DNA of 64,000 bases, taken from the NCBI GenBank assembly GCA_964016885.1, contig OZ024761.1, forward strand, positions 31,186,001-31,250,000. Direction: 5' to 3'. The stretch's first letter is position 1. The number at the start of each line of letters is the position of its first letter. The DNA comes from Eledone cirrhosa. Its lineage: Eukaryota. The position numbers and the translations under genes are program-made. The notes beneath the pieces are model-generated. The model searched no databases. It was given only the letters and a program-made list of their open reading frames with translations, and was not told where the DNA came from. Shown piece by piece: positions 6,201-62,936 of the stretch.

Positions 6201-6640
6201 CAGGAGAACATGATATGAAGGCTAAAAAAACACTTGTGGATAGTGCAGTTTTAAATCAACATATCTTATATTATGTATACTCCAGTCCTACAAACTGTAG
6301 AGTGCTTCTTATCCGATATCTGCATTGCTTTATTGTACTACAATAAAACTCACCTCCTACATATATATATATATATATATATAAATATATATATATATAT
6401 ATATATATATATATATATATATATATATATATATATATATATATATATATATATATACAAATATGTAGCAATAAATATTGACAGATGAACAGTATTTGAC
6501 TAGCACACAATTGGTTGGAGTTCTCTGAGTGTATGAGTGCGAGCGTGTGTGTATCTGTGTATGTGTGCTTGAGTGTTTCTGTGTGTGTGTGTGTATATAT
6601 ATATATATATATATATATATATATATATATATATATATAT

Positions 6641-6786
6641 TGCATTTAGTCCAGAATTAGCCGTCGAAACGGCTTGAGCTCAGCCGTCGGGGTCCTACTC
6701 GTTCCTATTACCCACTCTACTACCCTAAGTATTGAGTACTTTGGTGCGTTATGGTCCACCTGGTTCCTTACCACATTTCCTCCGTT
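6641..6786 (+). mobile_element. Hammerhead-family-1 terminal fragment (Penelope-like), non-inverted
   Basis: Carries the 3' half of the hammerhead (GAAACGGCTTGAGCTCAGCCGTC-GGGGT) plus an ~90-nt tail. Flanked by (TA)n. Confidence 0.75.
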
Positions 6787-6812
6787 ATATATATATATAT
6801 ATATATATATAT

Positions 6813-7158
6813 ACCTTGTATTTCATCCCGCAGGGTGTCCAAATATCACCCTCCTCACCATGCTAGCTTGGTGGGGTTAACGGTTTAGTCGCCGACGACC
6901 CGACCATGAGACAGGTTGTACTGGGTTACATGTTACCAGTAGCACTCGAGAGCGACCCGACAAAGGGCGGAGGAACTCAGCAGAGTCAACAGCCATCCAA
7001 ATAGTATTTATTTATTTTTTTTTTTTTTTTCTACCTGGGAGTGAAAGGCCCCAGTTGTTGTAACAACACCTTTCTAGGAGAGGGAAACTCTGAAAAAAAA
7101 AACAAACCTGCAGCTTCAGAAGCATCCGATGATGTTGACCAGTTCTTCTTTTCGGGTA
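6813..7158. mobile_element. Diverged 5' part of the RTE-tailed element with inverted first ~145 bp
   Basis: 6815-6960 is the reverse complement of 51304-51440. 6960-7158 matches 51460-51620 in the same orientation. Confidence 0.65.
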
Positions 7159-7168
7159 GAATAATAAC

Positions 7169-7543
7169 AATTGTTTCTACTTTTGGCACAAGGCCAGGGA
7201 TTACCCAGTTCATTACTGGTACTTTATTTTATTGACCCCGTAAGGATGAAAGTCAAAGTTAACTTCTGTGGGATTTGAACTCAGACCGTAAAGGGCCGTA
7301 ACTCTATGCTGAAAAGCATGGTGTCTGACGCTCTACCGATACTGCCAATCCGCCGCGTAGTTGGATTGGCAGTATCGGTAGAGAGTCGTACACCATGCTT
7401 TGCAGCATAGAGTTATGGACCTTTACGGTTTGAGTTCAAATCCCGTCGAGGTTAACTTTGCCTTTCATCCTTATGGGTCGATAAAATAGTACCAGTAATA
7501 CACTGGGGTAATTGCTGGCCTTGTGCCAAAAGTAGAAATTATT
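7169..7543. mobile_element. Head-to-head inverted pair of SINE A copies
   Basis: Minus copy 7169-7356 and plus copy 7362-7543, a few bp apart. Confidence 0.85.
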
Positions 7544-7680
7544 ATTGTTGCAGTTGTTGTAGTTGCTGTAGTAGTTGCTGTTGTAGTTATAGTTGTAGTT
7601 GTTATTGTTGTAGTTGTTGTAGTTGTTGTTGTAGTTATATATATATATATATACATATATATATATATATATACATACAT

Positions 7681-59271: not shown

Positions 59272-59564
59272 ATATATATATATATATATATATATATATA
59301 TAATTATTTAGGTTTAATAAGTTGGTCATCAATGACCAACGAAACGTACGTATTTGGTATGAAACCGTTGTCGTAACTGACCTGAATAATTTTATTCAAC
59401 TCACCTTAGGACTTGAGTTGCTCTACACCTTGGACTTTTTACTTACCTACTACTACTACTACTACTACTACTACTACTACTACTATATATATATATATAT
59501 ATATATATATATATATATATATATATATATATATATATATATATATATATATATATAAAGAAAC

Positions 59565-60105
59565 AATATGGCGACGAAGCAAAGTTGAAGAAATCGGTTA
59601 ACGTCTATTCCTATAACATAATAGATGGCGAAAGTCACGTGACGTGAGCAGTGATGTATGATGTGGTTGCATCCTGTAGTGAAAATACAACCAAAATAAC
59701 ACACACACACACACATATATATATATATATATATATATATATATATATATGTATACACATACACAAACCTAACAAAACGCACACACAGCAACACAAAAAT
59801 ATACATAAAAACACACATAAAACACATAAAAACACAGCAAAAACACACACAAAAACAACAAAAACAACACACATACAAACACACACACAAAACAACAGAC
59901 ATACAAAAAAAACACACACACAACAACAACAACACAAAAAGCACACACACACACACACACACAAATATATATCTAAAATATAACGGTTTGAATAGTATTA
60001 CATATGAAGAGCCCCAACAAAACCGTCAGTCATAATTGATTTATTACCAAACATCGGTCAGGGACGTAGCTACGTGCAATACTTATGGCGGTCGGTGGCC
60101 ATTTT
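59565..60105. promoter_or_regulatory. Candidate promoter-like region
   Basis: YY1-like ATGGCG cores (59568, 59625, 60085), GGCCATTTT (60097) and GTCACGTGAC (59634). Locally CpG-enriched. Confidence 0.3.
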
Positions 60106-60589
60106 GTTTTTTTTATTTATTTTTATTTTTAATTTTTTGATTGTTTTCTGTCTTTTATCTTTATTGTTTATTTTATATTTTATTTTTTTATTTTTTAATT
60201 TATTGGTTGTCATAAACGGACTTCTTAAAAACAGCTTAAATACCTAGTTTCTATTTCTTAGACAAGCTTTGACCTGAATCCTGCTATTAACTCTGTCCTT
60301 ACTGTTTTACTTACCTCCCCTCCTCACCTTCCCACCCTCCCTCTCACTCTATATCTATCTATCTATCTATCTATCTATCTATCTATCTATCTATCTACAG
60401 AGTGTCCCAAAAAATGTATAGAATGCTGTTTAAGTGTGTATACATTCTTTTGGGATACCCTATATATATATATCTCTCTCTATATATATAGTGGTGGAAC
60501 ACTGGACGGTAATATCCGTAGTGGTAGAGCACTCAGTCCAAGGGACGAGTTAGGTAGAAGTGGTTACACAACAGTTAGTTCACCATACC

Positions 60590-60626
60590 GAGAACAATTG
60601 TTTCACCTTAGCGGATCCTCAGCTTC
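60590..60626 (-). ncRNA. Minimal hammerhead motif
   Basis: GAAG-CUGAGGA-UCCGCUAAGGU-GAAA-CAAUUG-UU-CUC. Stem III palindromic, stem I weak. Confidence 0.5.
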
Positions 60627-60938
60627 TATATATATATATATATATATATATATATGAAAATAGTCAGGACCCCGACGGTTGAGCTCCGGCCGTTTCGACA
60701 ACTAGATCCGAACTCCACCTAGTATCTTACCACACCTTCTTTGTTATATATATATATATATATATATATATATCACGAGCTACTGTTGTTGTTATTGATA
60801 TTGCTGTAGTTGTTATTGTGGTCGTTATATATAATATATATACTAATGATAAATATTTGTTCTAAGGGTTTATATATATATGTATATATATATATTAATT
60901 TAAAATATTAACAAAATAGATATTCTTGTGATCAATTA

Positions 60939-61005
60939 TATTTTATTATACATATTTCAGAGGTACTGAGTTAAGTTCAACAGTACGTCCTCATCAGATA
61001 AAATA
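60939..61005 (-). ncRNA. Type I hammerhead ribozyme motif, intact core
   Basis: UAUUUUAU-CUGAUGA-[GGACGUACUG...CAGUACCUCU]-GAAA-UAUGUA-UA-AUAAAAUA. Stem I is 8 bp. Confidence 0.8.
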
Positions 61006-62936
61006 AAATGATGCATGACATACCCTGACATAGTAGATGGTTAAGATTCAGTCATGGTAGTATATAAATATATATATATATATGGTAGTATATATATATA
61101 TATATATATATATATATATATGTTTATATATATATTTATATATATATTTATATATATATAAGTATATATATAAATATATATATATATATATTTATATATA
61201 TATATATATATGTGTGTGTAGTATGTAGGGTTCCGAGTTGTGTCGGGAAGGGTAACCACAGTTAAGGGAGGTACTCAATACGTTGCTAGAGTATAGGCAT
61301 CTTTATTATATATAAAAATGACTTAGAACTGTAGAACTGTTTCATTCGTATGGAATCATCAGAACATTCTGAAGAGCCAGTAATTACGGAGTCGAACTTT
61401 ATCGTTACATAAACATTATATAATCGTCAATTGTTTTGAGCCGTGTTACAAGCGAAGCACGTGTAATGAATAAAATATGTGGGGAGCAAGAAATACGTAA
61501 TAAAAAAAAGCAAAACTATCGAAAATAGGGAGTACCTATTAAAAAAGAAAGACCTGGTGGTGATGAGGTGTGTGGTGGGGGTTGGTGACACTAACTCCTT
61601 GATACTTGGCACTTTAGAATATGCCTTTCCCAAATGCAATTCGGTTCCATGCTAGCCTTTAGCAGTGAATTGATTTACAATATATATATATATATATATA
61701 TATATATATATATATATATATATATATATATATATATATATATATATATATATATATATATATATTGTGTGTGTGTGTGTGTGTGAATATATATATATAT
61801 ATATAATACGTATTTGCAGTGAAATTGAAACTGTCAAATTTTTCTTTTTCCTATTGTCGTCGTCGTCGTCGTCGTTGATGTTGTTGTTGTTGTTGTTCCG
61901 ATCGTAAATCAGATTTCTAGACAATTACCTAACATTTTCCCCCTGTTCGAACAACGTGACCGACGTAAACAACAAATACTGTTACTACTACTACTACTAA
62001 TGTTGCTGCGAGAACAACTACGATATCACCCCCCCCCTCTCTCTCTCTCTCTCTCTCTCTCTCTCTCTATATATATATATATATATATATATATATATAA
62101 TGTGTGTGTTTGTGTGTTAGAGAGGGGGGCGCTTACAATCATGAGGTCGTGAGTTCTATTCTCGGACCGGGATTTGCGTTGAGCTCTTGAGGAAGACACT
62201 TTATTTTACGTTGCTAGAAATGAGTTGCGATGTCACTGGTGTCAAGCTGTATCGGCCATTGCCTTTCCCTTAGACATCATCGGTGGTGTGGAGAGGGGAG
62301 ACTGGTATGTATAGGTGACTGCTGGTCTTCCACAAACAAACCTTGCCCAGACTTGTGTCACGTAGGGAACTTCCTAGAAGCAAATCCCATTGTCATTCGT
62401 GACCAAAGGGGGCATATATATATATATATATATATATATATATATATATATATATATATATATTGAAGAAACAGGGGGCTGTGTGGTTGCTGGATAAAGT
62501 GTATTTAGAAATAAGAGGAAAGCACGAACGGGGGATTTTTCCCATCATCAGTTGTCTGCTGGAGATCACGCACATTTCTACGTATGTATATATATATATA
62601 TATATATATATATATATATATATATATATATAGTAATTGTTTCTACTTTAAGCACAAGCCAGCAATTACTGGTACTTTATTTTATCTACCCCGTAAGGAT
62701 GAAAGGCAAAGTCAACCTCGGCGGGATTTGAACTCAGATCGTAAAGTGACGTAACTATGCTGGAAAGCATGGCGTCCGACCCTCTACCGATACTGCCAAT
62801 CCACCGCCCTTATATATATATATATAGTAATAATAATAAATTAGAAGCCTAAAATCCAAAGAGGGCTCGATAAGGATAAATATATATCAAATATATAAGA
62901 ACCGTAGAGCAAATATTTATTAAAATAACAGATTAA

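Follow-up and report, generated by a model that had tools for sequence, protein, structure and literature searches.

A covarying bulged hairpin in the terminal repeats of Hydra-clade Penelope-like elements and its likely role in fixing where copying starts

The 64,000-nucleotide (nt) stretch of Eledone cirrhosa DNA analyzed here (the window; assembly GCA_964016885.1, contig OZ024761.1, positions 31,186,001 to 31,250,000) contains repeats that carry hammerhead ribozymes and belong in part to Penelope-like elements (PLEs). Our subject is a small hairpin near the ends of these repeats. The initial annotation had named eight ACTC/GAGT coordinate pairs, and both halves can be read at all eight. In the window, the ACTC-loop-GAGT pattern occurs 19 times against 3.08 expected, a count attained in none of 100 shuffles. 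Seven of the 19 matches are copies of a single family (family 1), seven are the remaining named sites, and five lie in unrelated repeats (at 863, 1231, 49745, 49895 and 49901).

Below, hairpin A is the one adjoining the shorter of two alternative element ends (the short end), and hairpin B the one behind the longer (the long end). Hairpins A of family 1 are found on the plus strand at 6714..6737, at 10518..10541 in a long copy, and in two-armed insertions at 30097..30120 (insertion 29980-30168), 30330..30353 (30217-30401), 38262..38285 and 59199..59222 (59081-59270); one more, at 63316..63339 on the minus strand, belongs to the two-armed insertion 63267-63467. Hairpin A of the 6279 family (6279..6303, plus strand) is bulged, with the long end at about 6360. 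The others are those of the 31143 family (31143..31161, plus strand), of the 60531 family (60531..60550, minus strand, 1-nt bulge) and of a relative of the 31143 family (61273..61292, minus strand). Three further hairpins, all on the plus strand, lie at 23030..23049 (1-nt bulge), at 57516..57539 in a decayed element that resembles family 1 and lacks an intact hammerhead core, and at 59399..59418.

The hammerhead of family 1 (10406..10491, plus strand) has a long stem II, a palindromic stem III and a C3/A8 core. On the minus strand, a minimal type I core at 6140..6194 lies in the inverted arm of the 6279 insertion, an arm that terminates at the short site, and another core (31079..31112) lies in the inverted arm of the 31143 insertion. 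Cores also stand 5′ of the 60531 and 61273 hairpins (60593..60622 and 61332..61362, both minus strand), and the 23030 and 59399 hairpins follow hammerhead 3′ halves (22983-22994 and 59341-59352). All window hammerheads were identified by pattern and none by Rfam gathering score: Rfam gave no window match at that score, and nearly all of the 150 listed among 426 matches at E<=1 were microsatellite-driven microRNA models.

ACTC and GAGT proved to be the lower stem of a larger bulged hairpin, RYTC-stem-loop-stem-U(N)-GARY, in which R-Y-T-C is followed by the first strand of an upper stem (2-6 pairs), a loop (2-42 nt), the second strand of that stem, a bulge (U or U-N) and G-A-R-Y. The lower stem occurs as ACTC/GAGT, GCTC/GAGC or GTTC/GAAC. 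TATT and GACT, noted earlier as preceding the motif, are indeed present, but they stand before GAGT and represent the upper stem together with a bulge of 1-2 nt that begins with U. Because the motif is self-complementary, its strand was set from the hammerheads, which places sites 60531, 61273 and 63316 on the minus strand. Read along the hammerhead strand, the hammerhead comes first, then a spacer, the hairpin and finally (TA)n; the hammerheads of 6279 and 31143, located in inverted arms, are for that reason on the opposite strand. In clear cases within this genome, 27-87 nt separate the hammerhead cut site from the hairpin on its 3′ side; the hairpin stands 40-140 nt ahead of the open reading frame (ORF). 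It is upstream of the first Met at three loci with such frames (L207, L208 and L254), which rules out coding constraint. The proposed spacing of about 25-60 nt to the microsatellite holds for 12 of the 14 window element sites (29-57 nt) but not for 10518, where the TA run is short and the distance is therefore 70 nt, nor for 23030, which has no terminal microsatellite after the hairpin (285 nt); in other families the distance reaches 95 nt.

Half of the eight named sites, representing the 6279, 10518 (family 1), 31143 and 60531 families, could be traced to ORFs. Sites 61273 and 57516 are tied to traced families by similarity only (73% identity over 132 nt with 31143 and 79% over 43 nt with family 1, respectively) and so are not independent, while 23030 and 59399 were traced to no ORF. 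Judged by their sequences, the four traced families are the termini, or pseudo-long terminal repeats (pLTRs), of Hydra-clade PLEs, and the earlier description of the carriers as otherwise unrelated ribozyme families does not stand for them. Seven Hydra ORFs of this genome share only 33-53% identity with one another (23-24% with one Neptune-type ORF). Family 1 runs upstream into a PLE ORF (91.8% identity over 1971 nt, L175 versus L177). At L207 (G000:C1:437198644-437213187) it forms five tandem units with a period of 3531 bp, four of which contain the same 784-codon open frame, an arrangement that points to recent activity. Hydra-type open frames here have 784, 820 and 758 codons, the last (L254) belonging to the 31143 family; the 60531 family is the pLTR of the Hydra ORF at L275/L281. 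A further three groups with the motif adjoin Hydra-like C-termini without interruption. An origin from retrozymes only was ruled out for the four traced families, as these are truncated ends of protein-coding elements.

The clade was assigned by published motif definitions. As defined in the available part of PMC8557442, Hydra-clade proteins have a C-terminal GIY-YIG domain, RW[RK], DKT, CxCX5C, CxxC and CxH, and the elements carry a hammerhead in the pLTR, target (TA)n, occur as tandem and inverted copies and have a tail at one end. RWR/RWT and DKT motifs are present in L207, L208 and L254, and among 117 aligned relatives RW[RK] occurs in 112 and DK[TS] in 116. The motif-bearing ORFs have the CxCX5C linker and the C-terminal CxxC and CxH without CCHH, as do 111 and 113 of the 117 relatives; the GIY-YIG domain scores weakly in Pfam (one of five proteins, E 0.0013). 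The motif-bearing families also carry a hammerhead in the pLTR and are inserted into (TA)n. A CCHH endonuclease, DKG and a CX2-5CxxC linker are seen in the L021-type (Neptune) ORFs and not in the motif-bearing ones. The hairpin was found in none of seven non-Hydra PLE ends (six Neptune-type and one Poseidon-type, two of the anchors not being clear cores). A motif-bearing end at L026 was rejected as a Neptune terminus, being a separate insertion after a TA run. Neptune-type 3′ untranslated regions (UTRs; L021, L022, L026, L028 and L037) are long and CA/TA-rich, with a U3/A8 hammerhead-like core and without the hairpin. Hydra-type relatives (E<=1e-30) make up 2213 of 7998 scored proteins, compared with 27 families in the available part of PMC8557442; none was found in the viral contigs searched.

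A 1.12-Mb sample of this genome (G000) yielded 25 groups made up of 90 hammerhead-like ends, some false positives being kept. The 2-nt-bulge form is present on the sense strand in 10 of the 25 groups and on the antisense strand in none. Among 128 like descriptors, that of the hairpin ranked first (z 8.1); ranking was by z-scores, unnormalised ranking being confounded by AT-rich chance stems. A second, 360-kb sample yielded eight complete ends, all from known families, and hence no held-out test. The held-out set came instead from a metagenome scan, which gave 77 Hydra loci in 65 clusters (<80% nucleotide identity); 16 clusters had no usable UTR, and 49 families were scored. The motif was detected in 35 of the 49, against 4 on the antisense strand and 3.45+-1.68 after shuffling. 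The held-out bulge base is U in 35 families, A in two and never C or G. Among 45 held-out instances, whose base pairs were counted by script since plain MAFFT alignment left the hairpins unaligned, the first upper pair is C-G in 24 cases and T-A in the other 21; five pair types occur at the second position. The hairpin thus covaries across held-out families through compensatory changes. By eye, the exact motif is present in three of six published Hydra consensi: near the 3′ end of Hydra-2_Amil and Hydra-2_Ajap, and in two copies ahead of the ORF in Hydra-1_Ajap. It is partial in Hydra-1_Amil and has no clear match in Hydra-1_Crog, and Hydra-1_Obim stops 30 nt past the hammerhead. Six 9-base terms gave eight matches in the supplement of PMC8557442, four in these hairpins and four elsewhere without a hairpin.

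These data bear on whether the pattern consists of chance matches or of copies of one recent family. The window by itself lends this idea some color: seven of its 19 matches come from one family, five from unrelated repeats, and some named sites are related. The held-out count already refutes it, with 35 of 49 families positive in a set of 65 clusters of <80% nucleotide identity. Together with the diverged ORFs, the compensatory pairs and the motif's occurrence in coral and sea cucumber consensi, this leaves the idea with practically no credence. On this evidence the hairpin is a real RNA motif that is clade-wide.

The motif has a fixed relation to the ends of element copies. Of 75 family-1 ends taken from DNA picked by position, 29 precede hairpin A by 8 nt and 38 precede hairpin B by 6 nt; in this family, hairpin B is confined to unprocessed tandem junctions. 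In all 13 families scored, the short ends have their mode 6-10 nt 5′ of hairpin A, compared with 1.5 expected for any TA-like site, and three families end at the short-site offset with little TA homology. Hairpin B lies 6-8 nt behind the long end in three of seven families (family 1, the 6279 family and S21). The held-out loci have their peak of TAT/ATA starts at positions −8 to −6 relative to the hairpin (62 of 100). Among 17 held-out repeat pairs, the 3′ copy stops 0-4 nt before the hairpin, after a TA-like run, in nine; one ends within the hairpin and seven have no pattern match. A conserved cis-signal tied to end definition, as the initial annotation had proposed, is supported, the motif being enriched, strand-specific and covarying. 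As a 3′-end marker it keeps no fixed distance to the visible terminal junction; its fixed offset is to another, shorter end, with the hairpin 6-10 nt 3′ of it. As for the suggested partnership with the hammerhead, nothing other than position was found to connect the hairpin with hammerhead function.

In 1.48 Mb, all 45 two-armed insertions with both ends mapped combine one short and one long end; short-short and long-long combinations were not observed. Ten more two-armed insertions have one unmapped end and 92 are single-armed. The two arms of an insertion share subfamily variants (2.0 versus 5.1 differences). One short plus one long end and matching arms are also what would be expected if the hairpin acted in DNA, with a single start at the long end, fold-back, stalling or GIY-YIG cutting of the second strand before hairpin A, and joining by TA microhomology. 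The available part of PMC3846280 argues for self-priming from inverted junctions, and that of PMC11167929 recounts that the D. virilis tail is required for endonuclease recognition. Yet the short site is also the end of 36 single-armed copies. At L177 and L209 the ORF-bearing arm terminates there while the opposite arm is small or barely matches, so that these long arms are not fold-back copies of it. In addition, the same offset recurs at the long end before hairpin B, and the bulge is a feature of the RNA strand specifically (35 versus 4). We therefore regard a DNA fold-back origin of the short end as unlikely.

We consider it reasonably probable that the hairpin in Hydra pLTR RNA is a putative reverse transcriptase (RT) binding site that sets the start of copying about 6-10 nt 5′ of it. 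The Hydra RT would bind the hairpin in the element RNA, and the adjacent UA-rich spot would be where a nicked (TA)n target primes. With two enzyme molecules on a single RNA, priming would proceed from both target strands, one per site, and the PLE 'tail' would be the stretch between the two start sites. Hairpin A would accordingly set the short end instead of the long end that is visible, and the tail would include the variable 29-95 nt up to the microsatellite. The available part of PMC11167929 describes a parallel in Poseidon_Ac, in which copying in vitro starts at two internal sites that lie 3′ of the hammerhead and bound the tail, both target strands are extended, priming needs RNA 3′ of the starts, and a dimer is predicted. 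Poseidon_Ac differs in belonging to another clade, in starting in an AC-rich stem-loop within the ORF and in that its binding motif is unmapped there. By analogy, the simplest reading is that the hairpin would be the Hydra counterpart of the RNA signal needed 3′ of the Poseidon starts.

The hairpin might, on the other hand, have a different RNA function, such as packaging with the protein, hammerhead control or transcription or translation through the 5′ UTR, the adjacent TA-like priming spot being coincidental. Its position between the hammerhead cut and the ORF would suit such a function, as would the two families that have sharp long ends without hairpin B. But the remaining TA-like sites in the interval are unused (13 families seen against the 1.5 expected), the three families with little TA homology still end at the offset, and the TA-like spot itself is kept at −8 to −6 across diverged families. 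A separate RNA function thus seems improbable to us, slightly more so than fold-back.

Several observations weigh against a start-setting hairpin. Six of the 13 scored families have just 2-5 short ends, with modes picked by eye, and the offsets are ambiguous by 2-5 nt through TA microhomology. Nine of 22 references were left out of short-end scoring, eight because they have at most one short end (one of these at 15 nt) and one because its hairpin was not called by the script. Hairpin B is ambiguous in S8b, is separated by 15 nt from H4's only long end and was not found in the 31143 and 60531 families, whose long ends are still sharp. The in-genome enrichment is partly circular, because the descriptor was drawn from the same data, and an equal best z was attained in one of 400 shuffles. 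Of 36 held-out 5′ UTRs, seven have two copies, 18 one and 11 none. Finally, many hairpins are weak when folded alone (z −2.9 to +0.3), a family-1 copy folds differently, and the cognate pair reaches p>0.5 in only 12 of 22. Weak isolated folding fits a protein-stabilised site, yet it counts against a free-standing structure.

In secondary structure the bulge resembles the arginine sandwich motif, described for HIV-1 TAR and 7SK in the available part of PMC6189040. As in those RNAs, a bulged U in the Hydra hairpin follows a Watson-Crick pair and precedes G-C and A-U, and both 1-nt (C-U-G-A) and 2-nt bulge forms occur. The pair before the bulge is Watson-Crick in all 45 held-out instances, which agrees with arginine-sandwich secondary structure; the G-A after the bulge is fixed by the descriptor, itself the first-ranked of 128. 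The TAR loop closes the opposite end of the stem, and no shared ancestry is implied. An AlphaFold model of a Hydra protein (predicted local distance difference test score 93.6) has telomerase RTs as its best fold matches (E 1.8e-8, template-modelling score 0.34). Four candidate arginines in two patches (R34, R36, R485 and R487) are 88-100% conserved in 117 sequences. More speculatively, an arginine may recognise the bulge, as happens in TAR and 7SK. That a single RNA seats two RTs through two arginine-sandwich-like hairpins, with each RT beginning at a set short distance 5′ of its hairpin and the two on opposite target strands, is a possibility we put forward with some doubt.

Small stem-loops that fix the site of copying are familiar from other systems. 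The 3′ stem-loops of L2/CR1/RTE long interspersed nuclear elements (LINEs) are read by LINE proteins, lie 5′ of the start and get copied, and the boundary elements of telomerase RNA mark where copying stops. Both resemble the Hydra hairpin in being small, RT-recognised stem-loops, whereas the Hydra hairpin lies 3′ of the start, is uncopied in that event and can come as one of two. Hydra PLEs, their hammerheads, tail and internal starts are already known; the hairpin itself was not found described. Full-text literature searches returned no published description, although figures, supplements, subscription papers or Repbase notes could show one. The main text of the Hydra clade paper (PMC8557442) lists hammerheads and contains neither 'hairpin' nor 'stem loop'. 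Non-LTR retrozymes are likewise short hammerhead-bearing repeats related to pLTRs, according to the available parts of bioRxiv 10.64898/2026.07.22.740005 and PMC4209133, neither of which describes this hairpin. Retrozymes differ in being stand-alone tandem units, whereas the four traced families are truncated protein-coding elements.

PLE RTs form the sister group of telomerase, their closest relative; the sole in vitro study mapped where on their RNA they start, though not what directs them there. With a motif of 20 nt at a fixed offset, both the choice of start and the origin of the one-sided tail become testable by a few mutations. If two hairpins do seat two RTs, this would be the first mapped initiation RNA signal in telomerase's sister group, and it would account for the inverted termini of PLEs as well as for their tail on one side only. 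The hairpin is also a compact annotation marker for Hydra ends, which resemble unrelated short repeats, and it could be a portable start signal if Hydra enzymes become tools.

Hammerhead repeats also show other arrangements. At L022:7900-8546, a motif-bearing family of the GTTC/GAAC form is present as a retrozyme-like, 459-nt head-to-tail dimer with no ORF linked. The most abundant hammerhead group, S0 (L033:9268 and 22 other copies), is without the motif; its opposite strand carries a GTTC/GAAC stem that has a bulge of one base. In family 1, the hammerhead core is U3/A8 in intact tandem copies (L207:1183) and mismatched C3/A8 in a widespread subfamily (window 10406), which may have spread without an active ribozyme.

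Within the window, two family-1 insertions of different subfamilies are adjacent in one (TA)n tract (29960-30449). Short family-1 copies mostly break or fold back near one point in the hammerhead stem II loop rather than randomly (70 rows), as at 6640-6660, 30030-30040 and 59130-59140. After the 23030 hairpin, positions 23085-23335 resemble by eye what we take to be the 3′ end of an RTE-type LINE.

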